IMG/VR virus record: IMGVR_UViG_3300046733_001096
Location: 14,947 to 78,946 of that record
Source: a virus
DNA length: 64,000 nt
Strand: one strand, 5' to 3'
This document shows, piece after piece, positions 20,528-29,579 of the stretch (the first letter of the stretch is position 1; every line of letters begins with the position of its first letter). The notes beneath the pieces are model-generated. The model was not told the DNA's origin and did no database searches. It saw only the letters and a list, made by a program, of their open reading frames with translations. Position numbers and translations under genes: made by a program.

Positions 20528-20866
20528 TTAATCATATTGATCTAACAAATTTGTTTTATCTTCTGTGTATCCTTTAGAAGGATTAACATCATCTGCTCCA
20601 GGTAATGGTTCTTTCTGGTCTACAATTACTTCCCATTGCTCAGACCATTTCGCATTGATATCATATAACCGCTGTGTGAATAGTGGATCGGTATCTGCTA
20701 TAATTGCATCAGCAGGACATTCCGGTTCACAAACGCCACAATCAATGCATTCATCTGGATTGATTACTAACATTTCTTCACCTTCATAAAAGCAATCTAC
20801 TGGACAGACTTCTACACAATCAGTATACTTACATTTAATGCAATCCTGAGTTACTACATAGGTCAT
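20528..20866 (-). CDS. fdxA: 7Fe ferredoxin FdxA
   Basis: [26 protein letters not shown]...[12 protein letters not shown]. Confidence 0.95.
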
Positions 20867-21062
20867 CGTGGTTCTCCGTTAATTATATCGTCTATCTAAT
20901 TTGAAATTGCTATTATAGTCTATAGTAAATGAAAAAGTAGTTATTGTCAAGTACTTTTATCAAGTATCCATAATTTACTACAATAATAACATGCTGTCCA
21001 TGGTTTACTATATCATCATCCGTATATTGATTATGTAATTATGGTATCTCTCTTGTTGTAGA

Positions 21063-21755
21063 CTATCCATGTTTTTTACTTTGAACTTTCATTTTTCTTG
21101 TTTGCCATGGCACTGTATCTTCAAACATATTCACAACTTCGTCACCTTGATATGCTTCGATAAGTTTCCACCAAGGCACAATTAACAAGTGTGATTTGAG
21201 AATCATACGTTCATTTTCTGTATCATTTACAATACCATGATAGCGATTTACATTTAAAAAGTTAGGATTAAAATATTCATGTGTTTCTAATTTTTCACCG
21301 ACACTATGCGTTCCGTCTTCTTGTTCCAAATGTTCATAAAAACTTATTTCTGTTTTGCCGCGCAATGGGGTATTGAATGCACTTAGTGCTCTAAAGTGAT
21401 GTGCAGTATGCGGCTCTAAATTACCGCCAGGAGGCATCCAAATAAATGTAAAACGCATACAGTGTTTAATTTCATCCCAATTCAATGTTACACCGCAGTT
21501 ATTTGCAATGTTTGTAATCCTTTGAAATATTTCATTCCAAATTTGAATGTTACAGTCATAGCAGACATTGTAAATTTTTTGCTTGGTGCTATCCATTCCT
21601 ACCGTACCGTGATCGCCAAATTTGTCTTTAATTTTTTGGTCAAAGAAGTTATTGAGTTCGTCTTGATCTGCTAAAAATCCATCATAACCTTTGGTTTCAG
21701 CAAACCTATCCTCATATCTATATCTTAGTTCGTTCACTTTATTCCTCCATAACAA
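21063..21755 (-). CDS. DSBH/cupin oxygenase-like protein (HxA motif)
   Basis: MPPGGNLEPHTAH...NTPL...HGIVN..ERMIL; true start probably GTG near 21737. Confidence 0.6.
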   Translation of the reverse strand: MLWRNKVNELRYRYEDRFAETKGYDGFLADQDELNNFFDQKIKDKFGDHGTVGMDSTKQKIYNVCYDCNIQIWNEIFQRITNIANNCGVTLNWDEIKHCMRFTFIWMPPGGNLEPHTAHHFRALSAFNTPLRGKTEISFYEHLEQEDGTHSVGEKLETHEYFNPNFLNVNRYHGIVNDTENERMILKSHLLIVPWWKLIEAYQGDEVVNMFEDTVPWQTRKMKVQSKKHG

Positions 21756-22597
21756 TGTTCATAATCAAAACTTAATCTATACAAATAACGATCACCTTCT
21801 ACTGCATTACGTTTATGAATACTATGAAACTGATCCATAAAAATAAAATCGCCAGGCTGCCAATCGTCATGGTGCCAAATATATTTGTCTTGGAAAATAT
21901 GTGCCATTAGTTTGTCAATAATAAGTTCTTTATCCAACTTCTCTTCTGGTTTGTCTCTTAACCACATCTCTCTAATATAATGAAATGTAAAATATAATCC
22001 TTCGTCCCCATCGTATGGATGCGTATATACCAAAGGCTTTGTTACGCCATATTTAAAATCTCTTGTGGCACCTTGAAACATTTTAAGTTCTTTATCGTCT
22101 TTGTCTAAGTCATAGAATGTTCCATTTTCAAATTTAAATGTACAATCTATTTGCTTATAGAAATTTTTATCTTCATCACATAAATCTTTGTATGCTTGTC
22201 TTGTGTCACAAAAACTAGTTACACTATTTTCGCCTGGTCTGACACAGTAAAGAGCCACACAGCATTCTTTACCACTTTTCCTGCCATTGCCATTACTATG
22301 CCAGTCTAATTCTTTGTCTGCAAAGATACCAATCTTGTCGCCATCTTTGCGTTCGTTTGTTACTCTAAACAAACCAGGATAATCTGGGTGCATAAAAAAT
22401 TGATTTGGTTTAAGTACATTGCCAATTAATTCACATACTCTTAGTATACCAGATTCATCTAGATTTTGATTTCTAACGAGTACTACATTATCTTTTACAA
22501 TGTTTTTACCCCAATCTCTAATTTCTGAGTCACTCATTGTGTTAAAGTCTACGTTATATTGCACAGCATCCATTTGCATTAATTCTCTTCTCCTCAA
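21734..22597 (-). CDS. TauD/TfdA family dioxygenase
   Basis: VVLVRNQ, WHSN, TSFCD...AY, PLV.THP, W.PGD..MD...IHKR. Confidence 0.85.
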   Translation of the reverse strand: MRRRELMQMDAVQYNVDFNTMSDSEIRDWGKNIVKDNVVLVRNQNLDESGILRVCELIGNVLKPNQFFMHPDYPGLFRVTNERKDGDKIGIFADKELDWHSNGNGRKSGKECCVALYCVRPGENSVTSFCDTRQAYKDLCDEDKNFYKQIDCTFKFENGTFYDLDKDDKELKMFQGATRDFKYGVTKPLVYTHPYDGDEGLYFTFHYIREMWLRDKPEEKLDKELIIDKLMAHIFQDKYIWHHDDWQPGDFIFMDQFHSIHKRNAVEGDRYLYRLSFDYEHCYGGIK

Positions 22598-22602
22598 TTT
22601 AT

Positions 22603-23097
22603 TTATGATAATATTATACTAACTGCATTTTCTACTGTGATATACTCTGTAGTGGATATATTAGGATACTTTTGTAATATGCGTTCAGTTCCTACATATC
22701 CAAAATGAGTATATTTTAAATTTAAAGGTGTGTCTAGATTAATCAAATCATTGTGCAATACACGTAATGATTTTTTTTGTATTTGATATTCTAGTAAATG
22801 TTCGTAGTTTTTTAATATAGTTTCATCTTCTGCTACATTACTACCAACATTAATTATTGTTTTGTTAGTATCTTTAAATGCATGGAACAAATCTAATAAC
22901 ATATAAGTTTGTCCAAACCCATCATGTGCATTGTTTATAAAAACATCAACGTCATTGCATTGTTTAATAATACGTTTTCTGTCAATACGGTTATTAATGT
23001 CGTAGCTAGTACTTTTACTAAATCCAATAAAGTTTACAACTGATTCAGATATAGCTTTTCCTATACCCGATGTATGTCCTGTTATTGCGTATTTCAT
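22603..23097 (-). CDS. short-chain dehydrogenase/reductase (minimal)
   Basis: AITGHTSGIG, DVFINNA, IINVGS, YxxxK (YQIQK). Confidence 0.8.
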   Translation of the reverse strand: MKYAITGHTSGIGKAISESVVNFIGFSKSTSYDINNRIDRKRIIKQCNDVDVFINNAHDGFGQTYMLLDLFHAFKDTNKTIINVGSNVAEDETILKNYEHLLEYQIQKKSLRVLHNDLINLDTPLNLKYTHFGYVGTERILQKYPNISTTEYITVENAVSIILS

Positions 23098-23672
23098 CTA
23101 TCACCTAATATTGTAACTACTAAATGTAATCTTTCATCCGTACTACCGTTAAATGCAGTATGAGGAACAACTGTATTTGTCCAATACCATTGATTTTGCT
23201 TTAGATGTTTACTTTCGTTTTCGATTACCATATAACACCCGTCTTGTGTTTTTATTGGATAATGTAATCTTGGAGTGTTATCGTTATGCCATGTTAAACA
23301 AGTCTTTGGTCTAGAATTCATTATTCGTATTCTACCAACTTTGTATTTTTTAGTTATACTATTGTATACATCTTCGAACAATGAATCTTTAAATCCTGTA
23401 CAAAGTACTTCAAAACTATCATCTTTCAAAGGAACTTCTCTACGAGGTACTATAATTTTTCCGTGTTCAGTTGTGTAAGAGTTGTCCCAATCTAAAAATA
23501 AACTTCCTCTTCCTGTTAGGCAATTTGACGGATCGTCTTTGGTTGCATTTAAACAAATTTGATCTTTGTCATTTTTATACCACCAAATCTTTTTTTCGTT
23601 GAGTAGTTTTAAAAACTCTGTATGCAAATCATATACAGGAAGATCGTTAAGTTCGACAAAATTCATTTGCAT
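23094..23672 (-). CDS. aspartyl/asparaginyl beta-hydroxylase-like 2OG-Fe(II) oxygenase
   Basis: RIRIM..WHND..RLHYPI...PHTAFN...RLHLV. Confidence 0.75.
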   Translation of the reverse strand: MQMNFVELNDLPVYDLHTEFLKLLNEKKIWWYKNDKDQICLNATKDDPSNCLTGRGSLFLDWDNSYTTEHGKIIVPRREVPLKDDSFEVLCTGFKDSLFEDVYNSITKKYKVGRIRIMNSRPKTCLTWHNDNTPRLHYPIKTQDGCYMVIENESKHLKQNQWYWTNTVVPHTAFNGSTDERLHLVVTILGDR

Positions 23673-24403
23673 TAGTTCTTTTCTCCTACTAGTATTTTAT
23701 TTGGAGTTTCACGGTCACTGTTAACATAATCTCTCCAAAGTGTTGCGTTTTCAAGTTCTTGTTCATATTCTTCTTGTGTATATTTGCCAATACTAAAGTT
23801 ACCATCTAAGTCCCAAACGTCTGCTACAAAATGCCATCTATCAGTATTACTTCTATTTAAAACATTGTGGTATGGATGTACATATGCAAGATAACTATTT
23901 CCCTCTTCAAGTATGTAACTTTCGTTCCCATGAATAAAATCAGTGCCTGCATCTGTTATAATAGGAATATGGAATCTATAAAAGTTACCATCAGTATGCT
24001 TTTTAATTTCTCCACTTGGATGAATATATGATAGTCTTGCTCTTCTAGGATTCATATTTTTTTCATGTAGAAAATCTAAGATTTCTTTAAAATATCCAGT
24101 ACATGCACTTGTTTCTATACTATAGTCTAACATGTGATAAATTTTATGTTGCCTAGCATAGTCTAAATTAAAATATACTTTCGGATCAGGATCTGTCATA
24201 TCTTGTTCATCATATCGCGGATATTGTATTTCTACATTAAAATTGAATCCGCTTTGCAAAGAACCGTCTTGACTAGATAATGCAATACCATGTAATCCAC
24301 CATCTCTTTGTTCGTTAACATTGTTATACTCTAATATACGATACAGTTCAGACTTTAATCTATCTTTGTTAAACTTCCAATCATTTTTTACCACATGAGT
24401 CAA
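23672..24403 (-). CDS. aspartyl/asparaginyl beta-hydroxylase-like 2OG-Fe(II) oxygenase
   Basis: RARLS..IKKHTD..RFHIPI...HNVLN...RWHFV.D. Confidence 0.75.
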   Translation of the reverse strand: MTHVVKNDWKFNKDRLKSELYRILEYNNVNEQRDGGLHGIALSSQDGSLQSGFNFNVEIQYPRYDEQDMTDPDPKVYFNLDYARQHKIYHMLDYSIETSACTGYFKEILDFLHEKNMNPRRARLSYIHPSGEIKKHTDGNFYRFHIPIITDAGTDFIHGNESYILEEGNSYLAYVHPYHNVLNRSNTDRWHFVADVWDLDGNFSIGKYTQEEYEQELENATLWRDYVNSDRETPNKILVGEKN

Positions 24404-25059
24404 ATCAGCAACCTTTCTTTGTTTGGTAAATTATCATAATCCACTCCAAATATTAAAACGATTCTAGTGTTATCGCTACTGTTTGTTACTCTATGTAACC
24501 AACCTGTATTAACAAAATAGCTTTTACCTCTTTGCATATCCAAACTAATTTCTTCGGTTTTTGTTTTCCATTGGAACAAACTTCCGGCTGTATTAACAGG
24601 TATTTGTACTCTACACAACACACTTGTATCAGTATCTATATGATAGTTTAGTTCATTGCCTCCATGCATAACACTTATACGTGCTCTATAGGGTGCGTTA
24701 AATTTATCTTTAAGGTATTGTTGTATAGCAGTTGTTTTTAAATCATCTCTCCAACTGTTATAATTTTTTTCATCAATTTCACTGTCCGCATTGTTATCTA
24801 GTTGCTGCAATAGTATTTGACTGTATGTTTCACTAGCAGTAAATGCACTTTTAACATCACAATGTTGTGATATCTGATAATTGTCACCGCCCAAATCATT
24901 ACCTGTGTAGTTATTGGCAATTTCCAATATCTCATCTAACACTGATTCGGGAACGTTATCTGTTACTTGTCCGTGAGTTTGCATCTGATGCCTACGTGGT
25001 CCATTTTTACCACTTACTCTGCTTCTTCTTGTATCGTGTATAAGGCAATTATCGGTCAT
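24400..25059 (-). CDS. aspartyl/asparaginyl beta-hydroxylase-like 2OG-Fe(II) oxygenase
   Basis: RARIS..YHID..RVQIPV...NTGWLHRVTN..RIVLI. Confidence 0.75.
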   Translation of the reverse strand: MTDNCLIHDTRRSRVSGKNGPRRHQMQTHGQVTDNVPESVLDEILEIANNYTGNDLGGDNYQISQHCDVKSAFTASETYSQILLQQLDNNADSEIDEKNYNSWRDDLKTTAIQQYLKDKFNAPYRARISVMHGGNELNYHIDTDTSVLCRVQIPVNTAGSLFQWKTKTEEISLDMQRGKSYFVNTGWLHRVTNSSDNTRIVLIFGVDYDNLPNKERLLI

Positions 25060-25639
25060 AATTTTCCTTCCATTTTTGAATACTTATACTTTTTAAAGGC
25101 AGGCTATAATTATTAGAACAAATAACTTGCCAACTTGCAGGATCATCGTCCTGTGGATAAGTTTGATACAGTCCTTCTAAGACTTTCCATTCATTTTGTT
25201 TCTTATATTTATTGTTTAGTTTTTCGGCTAACAATGCCAACGTTCCTCGTCTACGTTGAAACTCCACACTGAAAAATAATCTGGTAATATTATTTTGTTT
25301 TGCCCATTCTAATTGTGGATCTAACATTAGTGTTGCTGGTGTTTCAGTATCTCTTTCATAATTCATATTTTTACGTCTGTATTGTGGATTGTAATATGTT
25401 CTAGTTAGTAATCTTGCACAACCTTCTGGAAACATATGAGTTTGTACACAACTCATAGCAATCATTTCATCATTATCTTCTACTAGGAAAGTCCATAGTG
25501 GATATTTTTTATATCGGTTTGGTATGCTCCATGCTAGATTTGGATTGAACCAATCTTTATTTCTATCATTATTTGCATAAAATTTCTTACAGTAATGTAA
25601 GAATTCCAACTCATAATTTTCTAATGTAAGTATTTTCAT
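25049..25639 (-). CDS. putative GNAT-fold acyltransferase
   Basis: IAMSCV...ARLLTRTYYNPQYRR...QLEWAK...LFFS. Confidence 0.5.
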   Translation of the reverse strand: MKILTLENYELEFLHYCKKFYANNDRNKDWFNPNLAWSIPNRYKKYPLWTFLVEDNDEMIAMSCVQTHMFPEGCARLLTRTYYNPQYRRKNMNYERDTETPATLMLDPQLEWAKQNNITRLFFSVEFQRRRGTLALLAEKLNNKYKKQNEWKVLEGLYQTYPQDDDPASWQVICSNNYSLPLKSISIQKWKENYDR

Positions 25640-26295
25640 TTTTTAACAAACGCAGGATCAAGCCATTCGTTTAATGTATCAGGTCTAGAAACTACTACAA
25701 TATAATCTGCGTTGGCTTTAAGTTTGCTATATGCGTCAGTCAACTGGCCTTTCCATGGAGCACCTACGCAGAGTGTAATCTTTTCTTGTGGATCAGGATC
25801 AATACTGTGAGCATGACTTCCATCTAATACGTAACTATCATAGTTTCCTGGCATGTAAACTTTGTTTAGTTTTTTATCTAAAAAATATAGTTTATTAATA
25901 GCACCATTTAGCACTAGTCTATATTTGTCCTGCAATGTACCAATTTCTTCTTTTGTACTGTCTAAATGTGTATGTAATCCTGTATTAGGAGCAGTTCGTA
26001 GAATTGTAACTCTACCCGGAGGCTCCATCCATGGAAATATTTTTTCTTCTAATACATGTTGCATAACAGGACATTGATTGCCGGCTGACGTATAATTAAA
26101 TTCACCGTTTGTAGTATTATGATTGGGGTCCCTACCACCTAGTCTACCACCACCGTTCCATATTGCAATCATTCTGCAACCTCTGAATTCATTGTAGTGG
26201 TGCACATCATCAGAAAGTGCAAGCACTTCATCAAGCATTGCTTGTTTCTCTTCTTTAGTTACACCTATGTCAACTGCACCAAACGTAAATTTCAT
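25636..26295 (-). CDS. DSBH oxygenase-like protein
   Basis: RVTIL...HTHLD...KYRLVL...DGSHAHSI...KITLC. Confidence 0.6.
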   Translation of the reverse strand: MKFTFGAVDIGVTKEEKQAMLDEVLALSDDVHHYNEFRGCRMIAIWNGGGRLGGRDPNHNTTNGEFNYTSAGNQCPVMQHVLEEKIFPWMEPPGRVTILRTAPNTGLHTHLDSTKEEIGTLQDKYRLVLNGAINKLYFLDKKLNKVYMPGNYDSYVLDGSHAHSIDPDPQEKITLCVGAPWKGQLTDAYSKLKANADYIVVVSRPDTLNEWLDPAFVKK

Positions 26296-26303
26296 GTTGC
26301 CTC

Positions 26304-27026
26304 TTAATTAGTTTTGATTAATTTAATAAACCATTTAGTTGGATCAAACTGCCACCATTCTTGTCCAATAGCCCAACTGCCTGCCCGTCTGTGATGATTT
26401 TTGTGCCAACCTTCACCTGCTGTTAAGATATTTGCTATCCAACTATTATTAGGTTGAGCACCTCTGTGTCCTAGTATATTAAGTATTCCATATCCATGAA
26501 ATGCTAGTACAACCGGTATTGCATATCCAAATATCATAAACAATGGATCAATTGCTGTAAACAATATAATAATGGCAATATTTAAATAAAAGTAATATTT
26601 GTGGAACCATCTTAGGATTTTGTCTTGTAATAAACGTTTAATGAATTTGCGTTTAATTTTAAAACCATATCCCCATGTGTTTACATATACTGCCCACATA
26701 CCTTTGACACTGTGACTGTGTGGGTCTAGTTCTGTATCACTATGAGCATGATGTTGTCTGTGTGTAGCAGCCCAAGTCATTGCAGGACCAGCACCAGCAA
26801 ACATACCTAATATATTTACTGCCCACGGATACCATTTGCCTGTTTTAAAACTATTGTGCGAATAGTATCGGTGATAACCACCACTAATTGCTACAATTGC
26901 GATAATATACCACCAAAATAAAGATATAGAAAACATCCACAATTCACCATATAAAAATGCTGGAATCAACATTACGTGACAAAATGTATGATTTATAAGT
27001 AATTTTGTTGTATTTTCCATATACAC
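26304..27026 (-). CDS. membrane fatty-acid desaturase (Delta9-like)
   Basis: Three His boxes HRYYSH, HRQHH, HKNHH; DPHS; GEGWH. Confidence 0.9.
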   Translation of the reverse strand: MYMENTTKLLINHTFCHVMLIPAFLYGELWMFSISLFWWYIIAIVAISGGYHRYYSHNSFKTGKWYPWAVNILGMFAGAGPAMTWAATHRQHHAHSDTELDPHSHSVKGMWAVYVNTWGYGFKIKRKFIKRLLQDKILRWFHKYYFYLNIAIIILFTAIDPLFMIFGYAIPVVLAFHGYGILNILGHRGAQPNNSWIANILTAGEGWHKNHHRRAGSWAIGQEWWQFDPTKWFIKLIKTN

Positions 27027-27029
27027 TTC

Positions 27030-27401
27030 CTAATAATTCATTTGTGATTCAGTTGAGTTGTATTCTGCCTCTGTTATAGTCTCGATGTCACTTATTACTA
27101 AATATTCATCAAATGATTGCAATAACATTGTTAGATCATAATGCATAGCAGATGCGTGATTCTCATATCGGTAGTAATTGGTCTGGACAACCCTACAACC
27201 GTCATCTATTCTGGTAGTTTTTCTATTATCACTAGTTTCAAGCTCTTCTTCATCAGCTAGCCGATCTAACAGTTTAGTGAACTTAGGTAAACCAATTTTT
27301 TCTTCAAACCACACCAGGTATTGGTCATGTGTTTTTCCATCGGGGTAATCTATTGTAACTGTAAATTTATATGCCATTTTTGTTTTCCTTTTGTTCATCA
27401 T
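27030..27401 (-). CDS. hypothetical protein (start probably MAYKF)
   Basis: Operonic ORF. Confidence 0.6.
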   Translation of the reverse strand: MMNKRKTKMAYKFTVTIDYPDGKTHDQYLVWFEEKIGLPKFTKLLDRLADEEELETSDNRKTTRIDDGCRVVQTNYYRYENHASAMHYDLTMLLQSFDEYLVISDIETITEAEYNSTESQMNY

Positions 27402-27816
27402 GCCATTTACTATATCTGTCTACTGCAAGCATAAGTGTATTATGTGTATCATCAAACCAATCTTGAACACGATAGTCTATATTAATTGGTGGTTGAAATA
27501 TTTGATTAGTATCATCATATATGCTTTCTTTGATGGTGTCCATCCATACTACGAAATCTGCATTAAATGCTTTTCTATTTTCATCCAATGGACAGATAAA
27601 GTCTGCAACAACAGTTTTTCCGGCAAGTTCAATTCCATCTGCTAAATGACGCATACGTTCTGCTTGTCGTATACGTCCTTGTATACTAAAGTCCCAATCA
27701 TCATACATTGTTCGCACATTATCTGCATTTAGCCATACTCCATTAATTAGTTTTGAAAAGGGTTCGGCCAACGTCGATTTGCCACTTCCTGGTAATCCAC
27801 AAATTAATATTTTCAT
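27367..27816 (-). CDS. adenylylsulfate kinase-like P-loop kinase
   Basis: GLPGSGKST, NAD.VR, DFS..GR.RQA.RM, ADFICP. Confidence 0.75.
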   Translation of the reverse strand: MKILICGLPGSGKSTLAEPFSKLINGVWLNADNVRTMYDDWDFSIQGRIRQAERMRHLADGIELAGKTVVADFICPLDENRKAFNADFVVWMDTIKESIYDDTNQIFQPPINIDYRVQDWFDDTHNTLMLAVDRYSKWHDEQKENKNGI

Positions 27817-27831
27817 ATGTTATTATATCCA

Positions 27832-27878
27832 AAAAAGTAAAATGGTCTGAACATTGTTCTGAACATTGTTCAGACCAT
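27832..27878 (-). terminator. terminator with 12-bp stem and internal tandem duplication
   Basis: ATGGTCTGAACA...TGTTCAGACCAT followed by a T-rich tail. Confidence 0.7.
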
Positions 27879-27884
27879 CATTTA

Positions 27885-28235: not shown

Positions 28236-28269
28236 ATTGTTTTCCTTTGTGTTTATGTGTGTGTGTAGT

Positions 28270-28535
28270 GTAACTATTCTGTTGCTAGGTCAGTTACCAA
28301 CCCCCACGTGCTTAAATTAAGCCGCTAATGCCATTTCTGGCGCATAATTTGCGTTTGCAATTATAAAGTTTGTTCGCGGTAACGGCGCTTACATCCCGGT
28401 AACTCCATTCATCTATCTTGTCAGTCGATCCTAGTTCAGCCCCATCAAAAGCACACTTATCTAAATGTGTTTATGGTGGAGCTGCGCGGTACTGCCCCGC
28501 GGTCCTGTCCAATCATCAAATCACTTCAACGTTAC
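28270..28535 (-). ncRNA. ssrA: circularly permuted two-piece tmRNA, alphaproteobacterial type; tag ANANYAPEMALAA at 28358-28317
   Basis: Acceptor piece comes first (T arm CGCGG-GGCAGTA-CCGCG, CAGCTCCACCA ending 28474), then a hairpin spacer, then GGGGCTG at 28443 forming the acceptor stem with G3-U70; tag frame ends LAA-stop. Ends approximate. Confidence 0.93.
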
Positions 28536-28541
28536 ATTCTA

Positions 28542-28570
28542 TTTATAACATATTTTAATAGCGTTGTCAA
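28542..28570 (-). promoter_or_regulatory. tmRNA promoter TTGACA-N17-TATAAA, whose -10 also reads as late TATAAATA
   Basis: Direct sequence. Confidence 0.75.
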
Positions 28571-28573
28571 TAG

Positions 28574-28602
28574 AAAAGGCAGTGCGTCGATTCACTGCCT
28601 TC
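28574..28602 (-). terminator. intrinsic terminator
   Basis: AAGGCAGTG...CACTGCCTT followed by Ts. Confidence 0.7.
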
Positions 28603-28607
28603 CACTA

Positions 28608-29579
28608 TTAAAGTCCGTTAGGTACAATGATATAATGAATCATCAGTACTAGTGCCACAGAAGCACCAAGTCCTACCATCATTTTACCAAAGTCTTTTGC
28701 TACTAGCGGAAACACACTCTTTGTTTTCTTCTTGCCAAAGTATGTAGCCATAGCCAACTCACGTCCTGCTAATAAGCCAACAAACACCCAAGTTGTACTC
28801 ATTGGAATGTCGTTTAGTTCTTTAAAGAAGTACAAGCACAACCAATAGAACAAGTCAATCAGCGTTGCACTGCGCACATAACGTGTGTTATGTTTCTCTA
28901 ATACAATCTGTTGTATCTTACCGCCACGTTCTCTAAACATAAAGAACAAGCCTACTACAAACACTGCACTGATAAACACCATTAAGTCAACTGGAATAAC
29001 TCTTGGTAAGAACACTGCAATATTGGCAATGTCGTGTGATAACCAAGTCCACCACAAGCCGCCTGTTGCTACCCATTGTGCAATACGCCAGTAGTTCTTG
29101 TTGCTTTCGCTAACTGGCTTTGTTTCATCGTACCATTTGCCAAAATATTTGTGTATTGTAAACCATACTACATATGCAAAGCCTGCTGCAACACCATAGC
29201 CCATGATTGATTTCATCAGCATCTTCTCAAGCACAAAGGTACTTGCGAACACAGACAACACTAGAAATGATGTTGATACTGGCACACCCATTCTAGTTAG
29301 TGCAACTAGAATAAGAGGTGCTGCTGCATGATACCATTGCACTTCTTGCCAGGGTATCTTGTTTAGTCTTCCGTAACTGATGTCTCCACCATTTACACTC
29401 CAGCCATACCATAGTGTGGCTAATAGGACAGCGGATGCTGCGATCCATAATGTTTTGTAGTTAAATCTCTCATTGTTTGATGCCATCCATGTACCGAGAG
29501 TTTGTACTGAATCATTTGCTATTACTGCATAGGCAGCAAGTAGGAACCCTGTCAGGCTCCATAAAGTGAGTGCGTCCAT
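28608..29579 (-). CDS. polytopic membrane protein, PiT-like phosphate/anion permease
   Basis: Duplicated signatures ANDSVQTLGT / HDIANI and PVSTS / PMSTT; many TM helices. Confidence 0.6.
   Translation of the reverse strand: MDALTLWSLTGFLLAAYAVIANDSVQTLGTWMASNNERFNYKTLWIAASAVLLATLWYGWSVNGGDISYGRLNKIPWQEVQWYHAAAPLILVALTRMGVPVSTSFLVLSVFASTFVLEKMLMKSIMGYGVAAGFAYVVWFTIHKYFGKWYDETKPVSESNKNYWRIAQWVATGGLWWTWLSHDIANIAVFLPRVIPVDLMVFISAVFVVGLFFMFRERGGKIQQIVLEKHNTRYVRSATLIDLFYWLCLYFFKELNDIPMSTTWVFVGLLAGRELAMATYFGKKKTKSVFPLVAKDFGKMMVGLGASVALVLMIHYIIVPNGL

Follow-up and report, generated by a model that had tools for sequence, protein, structure and literature searches.

A conserved desaturase–oxygenase cassette in a marine phage operon, with two unusual putative metal sites and a tentative link to envelope lipids

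The virus record IMGVR_UViG_3300046733_001096 is 78.9 kb long, and the 64 kb of it analysed here (hereafter the window) contain at 21063-27816 an operon of eleven genes, most of them encoding predicted enzymes, in what is an uncultured marine phage. By sequence comparison, this operon is real, conserved and probably expressed, a relative of known phage tailoring or auxiliary islands with two unusual metal sites among its oxygenases. Within it, g3 to g11 read as one copy of a mobile enzyme cassette, the core of which consists of a membrane desaturase (g3), a GNAT-fold protein (g5), a PF05118 hydroxylase (g6) and a TauD-family oxygenase (g10). We tentatively propose, at somewhat short of an even chance, that the cassette remodels a fatty-acyl-bearing lipid in the envelope of the infected cell. 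The genes, numbered g1 to g11 in order along the minus strand, fill the region as co-directional open reading frames (ORFs) with gaps of at most 8 nucleotides (nt) or overlaps of 1-35 nt, a layout that the initial annotation had described correctly. They include six oxygenases with a double-stranded beta-helix (DSBH) fold of the type dependent on iron and 2-oxoglutarate (2OG).

27367..27816, minus strand: g1, short P-loop kinase, APS-kinase-like, 149 amino acids (aa), first gene of the operon, outside the conserved cassette
27030..27401, minus strand: g2, acidic protein of 123 aa, outside the conserved cassette
26304..27026, minus strand: g3, predicted SCD1-type membrane fatty-acid desaturase, cassette core, likely ATG start at 27020
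25636..26295, minus strand: g4, putative fourth PF05118-like DSBH oxygenase, motif H110-L-D112...H163
25049..25639, minus strand: g5, GNAT-fold protein, cassette core, from a mainly viral family without a Pfam entry
24400..25059, minus strand: g6, PF05118 (AspH/LpxO/OlsC family) hydroxylase, cassette core, motif H140-I-D142...H189...R199
23672..24403, minus strand: g7, PF05118 hydroxylase paralogue (H-T-D), accessory, 39.6 against 22.6 bits
23094..23672, minus strand: g8, PF05118 hydroxylase paralogue (H-N-D), accessory, 37.4 against 22.6 bits
22603..23097, minus strand: g9, minimal short-chain dehydrogenase/reductase (SDR) of 164 aa, accessory
21734..22597, minus strand: g10, TauD/TfdA-family oxygenase, cassette core, likely start at 22579
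21063..21737, minus strand: g11, DSBH 2OG-oxygenase-fold protein, frequent accessory, likely start at 21737

The initial annotation had read these genes as one unit rather than as scattered auxiliary genes; the unit is upheld, but all eleven genes is too wide a definition of it. A scan of IMG/VR with g10 returned 35 loci at 52-92% identity, of which the 14 that are non-redundant and have at least 4 kb on both sides were counted. The desaturase, g5 and g6 are each present at 12 of these informative loci, where together with the TauD gene they adjoin one another; g11 occurs at 8, g4 and g8 at 7 each, and g9 and g7 at 4 each. Outside the cassette, the kinase g1 was found at a single locus, and g2 and the ferredoxin gene downstream of g11 at none; judged by these counts, kinase, g2 and ferredoxin do not travel with the cassette. 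The core set is likewise together in the cultured phage Mosig and in Bdellovibrionota. The synteny looked for is therefore seen for the core gene set, but not for gene order, which is shuffled, nor for g4, g7, g8, g9 and g11, which are gained or lost among relatives. For instance, one locus (L003) has g9 and g8 before g3, another (L014) has g4 after g11, and the closest copy (L002), with six genes 89-97% identical and g8 at ~50%, is without g7 and g9 and stands between other flanks. All cassette genes are under purifying selection: the ratio of nonsynonymous to synonymous substitution rates (dN/dS) is 0.04-0.42 when all pairs are compared, and 0.065-0.14 when the comparison is with the closest relative.

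Many of the relatives have T4-like flanks (a VWA/AAA pair, a 5'-3' exonuclease and fibre-like genes), whereas the window carries a helicase 52.7% identical to helicases of PA5oct-type jumbo phages, arguing that the cassette moves as a block between phage backgrounds. The T4-like relatives also carry several radical SAM enzymes, a nitroreductase and methyltransferases, none of which is present in the contig of the window. At two loci, three tandem TauD-family paralogues, 29-67% identical to g10, stand side by side (L012 8497-11627 and L011 6087-9219), and the oxygenase set therefore seems to grow by duplication as well as by exchange. In a scan of bacterial genomes, the g10 clade was found only in metagenome-assembled genomes (MAGs) of Bdellovibrionota, where a few kb at most separate it from desaturase, g5-like and g9-like genes, on contigs of up to 398 kb. 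The copy in the 398-kb contig (L041) belongs to an island flanked by nadA, recR and dnaX that additionally contains two radical SAM genes, a carbamoyltransferase, an ABC transporter, a PF04116 fatty-acid hydroxylase and another PF05118 gene. This island (L041/L047) extends over ~20 kb (G001:C1 ~194.5-217.3 kb) and includes ~10 proteins without a family match; most genes of the island were left unnamed by Pfam and NCBIfam. A separate Bdellovibrionales MAG contig (L038, JANPLN010000030.1, 151.8 kb) carries a TauD gene at 65% identity, with two nitroreductases and a c15-like gene nearby; as T4-like phage genomes typically have such a length and the neighbours are phage-like, the contig may be a misbinned phage.

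This distribution bears on whether the genes share a substrate at all. They could instead be independent auxiliary genes gathered in a hypervariable region, individually serving 2OG draining, DNA or RNA repair and membrane fluidity. Many scattered 2OG oxygenases are indeed known from cyanomyophages, in which 2OG modulation or repair has been proposed as their role (PMC3037559), and both the variable order and content of the accessory genes and the occurrence of a TauD homologue alone at some loci would fit such a collection. We nonetheless regard it as improbable, since the four core families keep their adjacency, at 27-40% identity, in different phage backgrounds and in bacterial chromosomes, the abutting or overlapping ORFs point to translational coupling throughout g1-g11, and an invariant H-x-N motif in the TauD clade, described below, argues for a specific chemistry.

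Most of the family assignments made initially are borne out: the desaturase by PF00487, the GNAT-like protein by fold, the SDR by motifs, the APS-kinase-like protein by PF01583, the TauD protein by PF02668, and the six DSBH-type oxygenases (g4, g6, g7, g8, g10 and g11) by Pfam, motifs and models. The desaturase g3 scores 49.9 bits with PF00487 FA_desaturase (threshold 29.7) and matches the acyl-CoA desaturase of PDB entry 4zyo with an E-value of 4e-8 and the His boxes aligned. These boxes read HRYYSH, HRQHH and HKNHH, and all nine His together with N183 are invariant in 16 homologues. The dN/dS of g3 is 0.07. As the operon protein to which hydrophobic segments are confined, g3 reads as a membrane desaturase of the SCD1, putatively delta-9, type.

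The three Asp-hydroxylase-like genes of the initial annotation are better counted as four. The PF05118 match of g6 reaches 34.0 against 22.6 bits, with motif residues that are invariant in the g6 family. g6, g7 and g8 are distant paralogues, the C-terminal half of g7 showing 27-30% identity to g6 and g8. The fourth, g4, has no Pfam match and is placed with PF05118 by structural likeness: its motif residues and R204 are invariant in its family, hhalign sets this family in register with that of g6 (E 1e-3, probability 21%), and its Atlas model has TM scores of 0.70-0.74 to bacterial PF05118 clusters. As no hydrophobic segment marks g4, g6, g7 or g8 as membrane-anchored, we assign them to the same Pfam family as LpxO and OlsC and not to the LpxO/OlsC orthologues. 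The remaining two oxygenases are of other types. TauD PF02668 covers residues 11-275 of g10 at 104.6 bits (against 27), and a g10 profile finds TfdA (8e-20), ScoE (1.4e-17) and TauD (1.7e-12) in the PDB; with the equivalog for ScoE-type isonitrile synthases, NF049937, g10 scores 47.6 bits, below the cut-off of 400. The model of g11 (AF2, pLDDT 88) is by VIA closest to ALKBH6 (Z 12.8) and AlkB (Z 12.5), with prolyl hydroxylases also among the best matches.

The GNAT-fold assignment of g5 rests on structure. The AF2 model (pLDDT 91) gave 59 Foldseek matches, of which every listed one is an acetyltransferase, and by VIA all listed matches are GNAT proteins at Z 9-11, the top neighbours being Naa80, Ard1 and RimI and the Z gaps among the GNAT matches less than 1. 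The Q/RxxGxG/A motif for the acyl-CoA pyrophosphate is absent; the corresponding stretch reads P-x-Y-R-R, its Gly missing. g5 has no Pfam match, and of 59 scanned members of its family (381 representatives) one gives a weak match to PF00583. The family matches in a set of 5.8 billion proteins are without names or Pfam domains, the Atlas offers only viral 'hypothetical' clusters, and tblastn of g5 against cultured phage records gave no match. None of the profiles built for the g5, g11, g4 and g6 families had a significant match among PDB sequences. g9 also lacks a Pfam match of its own; TGxxxGxG, NN(A), IN.GS and YxxxK are invariant in 8 homologues, including those of Bdellovibrionota, and the homologue on the 398-kb contig matches PF00106 weakly (6.7e-6).

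Both iron-binding His are present in all six oxygenases (HLD..H in g4, HID..H in g6, HTD in g7 and HND in g8), and the basic residue that binds 2OG is invariant in the families of g6 (R199), g11 (R177), g4 (R204) and g10 (R268). The carboxylate ligand is missing from g10 and g11. In g10, W93-H94-S95-N96 places N96 at the position of the iron-binding Asp of TfdA (WHSD) and ScoE (WHAD), and the distal His and R268, aligned to the 2OG Arg of TfdA and ScoE, are intact. The Asn of this WHSN motif is invariant across 18 phage sequences with 31-93% identity to g10, and it recurs in the Mosig and Bdellovibrionota homologues at 27-35% identity. The g11 family has H110-x-A together with H167 and R177; the motif is H-T-A in the window and H-V-N in others, with Asn in half of the family. 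Strong purifying selection (dN/dS 0.04-0.11 for the two genes, and 0.04-0.07 for g10) argues that neither is decaying. Two His ligands suffice for hydroxylation by AspH, and SyrB2 and CytC3, both halogenases, are carboxylate-less as well (PMC10915816); like them, g10 and g11 keep both His and the Arg without an Asp or Glu ligand, whereas g10 differs in having a conserved Asn in place of Gly or Ala. Since a carboxylate-less AspH hydroxylates and carboxylate-less halogenases halogenate, an H-x-N or H-x-A motif by itself does not reveal the chemistry. In the literature searched, we found no description of an H-x-N Fe/2OG enzyme or of an H-x-N TauD clade. This clade is a clean target for asking how the iron ligand set steers Fe/2OG chemistry.

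Such sites raise the possibility that the cassette makes a diffusible small molecule from a fatty acid and an amino acid, e.g., a fatty amide or an isonitrile-type or halogenated compound, with g10 and g11 performing chemistry other than hydroxylation. Consistent with this, g10 is closest to TfdA and ScoE, both of which oxidise an X-CH2-COOH group, g11 has the H-x-A of Fe/2OG halogenases and resembles HalB, CurA Hal and WelO5 in structure (Z 10-10.6), and the Bdellovibrionota island starts with an ABC transporter. Nevertheless, the halogenase matches of g11 lie below those to AlkB-type proteins, its position +2 is Asn in half of the family, the two-His hydroxylation by AspH (PMC10915816) means that a missing carboxylate does not imply halogenation, the NF049937 score of g10 is far from the cut-off, and the operon encodes neither an activating enzyme nor a carrier protein. 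A small-molecule product thus has, in our estimate, little chance of being the answer.

From the enzyme families, we infer a shared substrate and a series of steps on it, the candidates being an aminolipid or N-acyl amino acid, or lipid A. The desaturase g3, drawing electrons from a ferredoxin, would act at the membrane to introduce a double bond into an acyl chain, the LpxO/OlsC-type enzymes would hydroxylate acyl chains or the head group, and the GNAT-fold g5 would make or edit an amide-linked acyl group; the TfdA/ScoE-like g10 could then oxidise a carboxylate-bearing head group, and the SDR g9 could oxidise or reduce the resulting hydroxyl or keto group. Several observations lean towards an acyl lipid. 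The desaturase, with all nine His of the SCD1 type, is among the most constant partners in the cassette, and desaturases of this type from cyanophages have been shown to be active as delta-9 lipid desaturases (PMC5776448). The characterised bacterial LpxO-type enzymes act on lipid-bound acyl chains, LpxO, OlsC and OlsD 2-hydroxylating those of lipid A and ornithine lipid (PMC12971839). The bacterial island adds a PF04116 hydroxylase, a member of the OlsE superfamily, and another PF05118 gene, and no GT1 or GT2 glycosyltransferase was detected within 160 kb of it on the 398-kb contig. Moreover, the nearest solved relatives of g10 include ScoE, acting on an amino fatty acid, and AtsK, acting on alkyl sulfates, and in the window phage no sugar or fibre genes lie near the cassette, arguing that it works without them.

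Set against a role in lipid remodelling are the following points. The operon contains no acyl carrier protein, acyl-activating enzyme, OlsB-type (PF13444) or PlsC-type acyltransferase, and no Pfam match to an OlsA-type O-acyltransferase or to OlsF was found in its eleven proteins; OlsB-type PF13444 is also absent from the contig of the bacterial island, the Bdellovibrionota genome having it on another contig. No hydrophobic or membrane segment was found in g4, g6, g7 or g8, LpxO being an inner-membrane enzyme according to the title of Gibbons 2008 as cited in PMC12971839. The GNAT likeness of g5 is at the level of fold, with the usual motif missing, and its nearest neighbours, by small margins, are protein N-acetyltransferases; those of g11 are AlkB-type and prolyl hydroxylases. 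In the T4-like relatives and Mosig, the cassette stands beside tail-fibre, radical SAM, carbamoyltransferase and sugar-type aminotransferase genes, a neighbourhood that would suit glycan or protein tailoring. A TauD homologue occurs without the cassette at 2 of the 14 loci and by itself in the cyanophage P-HM2. Expression, too, is unproven. With 0-8 differences, contigs of two metatranscriptome libraries from different studies match the ferredoxin gene and g1, g2, g3, g9 and g10; this hints weakly at transcription, as such contigs show neither strand nor level and such libraries may contain DNA. No RNA-library contigs cover g4 to g8, which is not to be read as silence.

Some of these points would be better explained if the soluble enzymes modified virion or tail-fibre proteins or a small peptide, by hydroxylation of Asp, Asn, Pro or Lys and by N-acetylation, with the desaturase as a passenger. 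AspH, the archetype of PF05118, hydroxylates proteins (PMC10915816), the neighbours of g11 and g5 named above act on proteins in part (prolyl hydroxylases; Naa80, Ard1 and RimI), and the Mosig and T4-like cassettes abut tail-fibre genes and radical SAM/SPASM enzymes. A passenger, however, would hardly be expected in 12 of 14 loci and usually directly beside g5 and g6, and Z differences below 1 among the g5 matches discriminate little between acetyltransferases. In addition, the window cassette is not near fibre genes, and the chromosomal Bdellovibrionota copy is without a phage fibre context. For a precursor of a ribosomally synthesized and post-translationally modified peptide, the operon leaves no intergenic room, and g2 (123 aa) is its sole non-enzyme, although no systematic search for small ORFs was made. 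Taken together, we consider protein or peptide modification unlikely, if not negligibly so.

Alternatively, the cassette might belong to a larger island that tailors a sugar-containing surface structure such as a lipopolysaccharide (LPS) O-chain, a capsule or a glycosylated fibre. In the relatives and Mosig, it is adjoined by a carbamoyltransferase, a DegT-type aminotransferase, B12 and SPASM radical SAM enzymes and methyltransferases, and the host-recognition cluster of pelagimyophages, in which Mosig carries its copy, is rich in LPS-type genes (PMC7029224). Yet none of these sugar-type genes is found in the 79-kb contig of the window, indicating that the cassette works without them, and the Bdellovibrionota contig has no GT1 or GT2 gene within 160 kb of its island. 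We know of no sugar substrate for a membrane acyl desaturase (PF00487), which we also count against a glycan target, and overall we rate such a target as quite unlikely. DNA hypermodification, which a P-loop kinase and an AlkB-like fold might suggest, was set aside, given that the kinase is not a conserved companion of the cassette and that a membrane desaturase belongs to the core.

Returning to envelope lipids, a more specific version is that ocean phages and predatory bacteria share a self-contained pathway that makes or edits a hitherto undescribed lipid, unsaturated and hydroxylated, of the N-acyl amino-acid type, with the carboxylate-less g10 and g11 carrying out non-hydroxylation chemistry on its head group. 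Examples of such chemistry would be halogenation or, on the model of TfdA and ScoE, the decarboxylation or oxidative cleavage of an X-CH2-COOH group. We put this pathway forward as a doubtful but specific idea. If host envelope lipids are indeed rewritten during infection, abundant ocean phages would have a hitherto unrecognised means of altering cell surfaces and membranes, perhaps with a bearing on phosphorus economy or superinfection. Dozens of contigs from uncultured marine phages carry the cassette, among them relatives of phages that infect SAR11. As Mosig, with its related cluster, is in culture together with its host HTCC1062, the question is directly testable.

The layout around the operon is consistent with a single transcription unit. 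A hairpin before g1 and a promoter in the gap after g11 suggest that g1-g11 form one such unit and the ferredoxin gene a separate one:

27841..27879, minus strand: putative intrinsic-terminator hairpin with U-rich tract, ending the upstream unit 25 nt before g1
20922..20950, minus strand: candidate sigma-70-like promoter TTGACA-17-TACTAT in the 196-nt gap after g11, by consensus match only
20528..20866, minus strand: ferredoxin gene (Fer4 + DUF3470, by Pfam), 196 nt downstream of g11

The hairpin folds at -21.6 kcal/mol (z -5.4), and none of 200 shuffled sequences folds as well. Scans of the sequence with consensus promoters and terminators performed at chance level, folding singling out only this hairpin, and the late-promoter box TATAAATA was rejected, since it occurs 9 times in the window, where 11 would be expected, and is missing from the start of the operon. 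The promoter probably drives the ferredoxin gene separately. The ferredoxin gene, correctly reported just downstream by the initial annotation, is a possible source of electrons for the desaturase.

The first gene, g1, matches APS_kinase PF01583 at 34.4 bits (cut-off 21.1) and phrog_10255 at 8.8e-32, and it scores 26.3, over residues 3-85 only, with the CysC equivalog TIGR00455, for which the cut-off is 138.7; we therefore call it P-loop kinase-like and make no CysC assignment. Homologues at 40-48% identity occur in siphophages of Xylella, Stenotrophomonas and Xanthomonas and in Ralstonia jumbo phages; the Xylella and Ralstonia phages are unrelated and are not known to have the cassette, and by this distribution the family appears as a widespread phage kinase independent of the cassette. 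g2 has no match in Pfam, PHROG or NCBIfam and no counterpart at the 14 loci.

The window has ~35% G+C, and its minus strand holds nearly all genes. Weak virion-protein matches together with ClpX-like and DnaB-like genes mark it as part of a large phage; megablast of the whole stretch against cultured phage records gave no match. Approximately 450 nt upstream of the operon lies a permuted tmRNA of the alphaproteobacterial type (28267-28574, minus strand; RF01849, 128.9 bits; tag peptide ANANYAPEMALAA), and as the tmRNA is of this type, the host is probably an alphaproteobacterium. Just upstream of the tmRNA, a polytopic membrane protein of 323 aa (28608-29579, minus strand) has no Pfam match at 0.01. 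At least 17 seawater or marine metagenome runs contain 74-100% of the sampled words of the stretch. A viral metagenome contig over g9 and g8 (22658-23516) differs at 55 of 859 positions and has a depth of 39, compared with 8 for the flanking identical contigs; from this ~5-fold depth, a related and more abundant variant seems to share that part of the cassette.

The individual ingredients have precedents, in that single genes are already annotated in Mosig, and viral desaturases, phage 2OG oxygenases and the hypervariable region of pelagimyophages are published; in the literature searched, no paper was found that treats the desaturase-GNAT-PF05118-TauD set as a unit. Beginning with bacterial lipid tailoring, Fe/2OG enzymes (OlsC, OlsD and LpxO) and a di-iron enzyme (OlsE) of the same families act on one lipid (PMC12971839), and the bacterial island has a PF04116 gene. 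The likeness is at family level only: the initial annotation had seen no scaffold synthase, and indeed none is present in the window, with no OlsB, OlsA or OlsF synthase gene in the cassette; the phage hydroxylases are soluble; and the di-iron enzyme of the cassette is an SCD-type desaturase, unlike OlsE. Marine T4-like cyanophages similarly carry multiple, tandem 2OG-Fe(II) oxygenase genes in variable regions (Sullivan et al. 2010, PMC3037559), P-HM1 and P-HM2 having Asn beta-hydroxylase and TauD genes; unlike the cassette, these oxygenases are treated as scattered and tied to 2OG or nitrogen status. The P-HM2 TauD, which is 25% identical and stands alone, was rejected as a cassette member. 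The cyanophage vFADs (Roitman et al. 2018, PMC5776448) are, like g3, short viral membrane desaturases of the delta-9 type with a ferredoxin gene nearby. They are described as single auxiliary genes, in a text that does not use the words oxygenase, hydroxylase or 'neighbo...', whereas here the desaturase anchors a conserved multi-enzyme cassette.

Among the closest known systems is the cluster Mosig_00072 to Mosig_00081 of Mosig EXVC030M (MT647606), in the host-recognition or hypervariable region of a pelagimyophage (PMC7029224). The two share co-directional genes, a desaturase (35% identity), an H-x-N TauD (34%), PF05118 hydroxylases and a remote g5 homologue that is annotated there as an acetyltransferase (hhalign 70.6%). 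The Mosig cluster adds an aminotransferase-like gene, an FMN reductase, a peroxiredoxin and a methylase and lies beside tail-fibre and radical SAM genes in a T4-like genome, whereas the window copy has four PF05118-like genes, g11 and the SDR in a phage with a PA5oct-like helicase.

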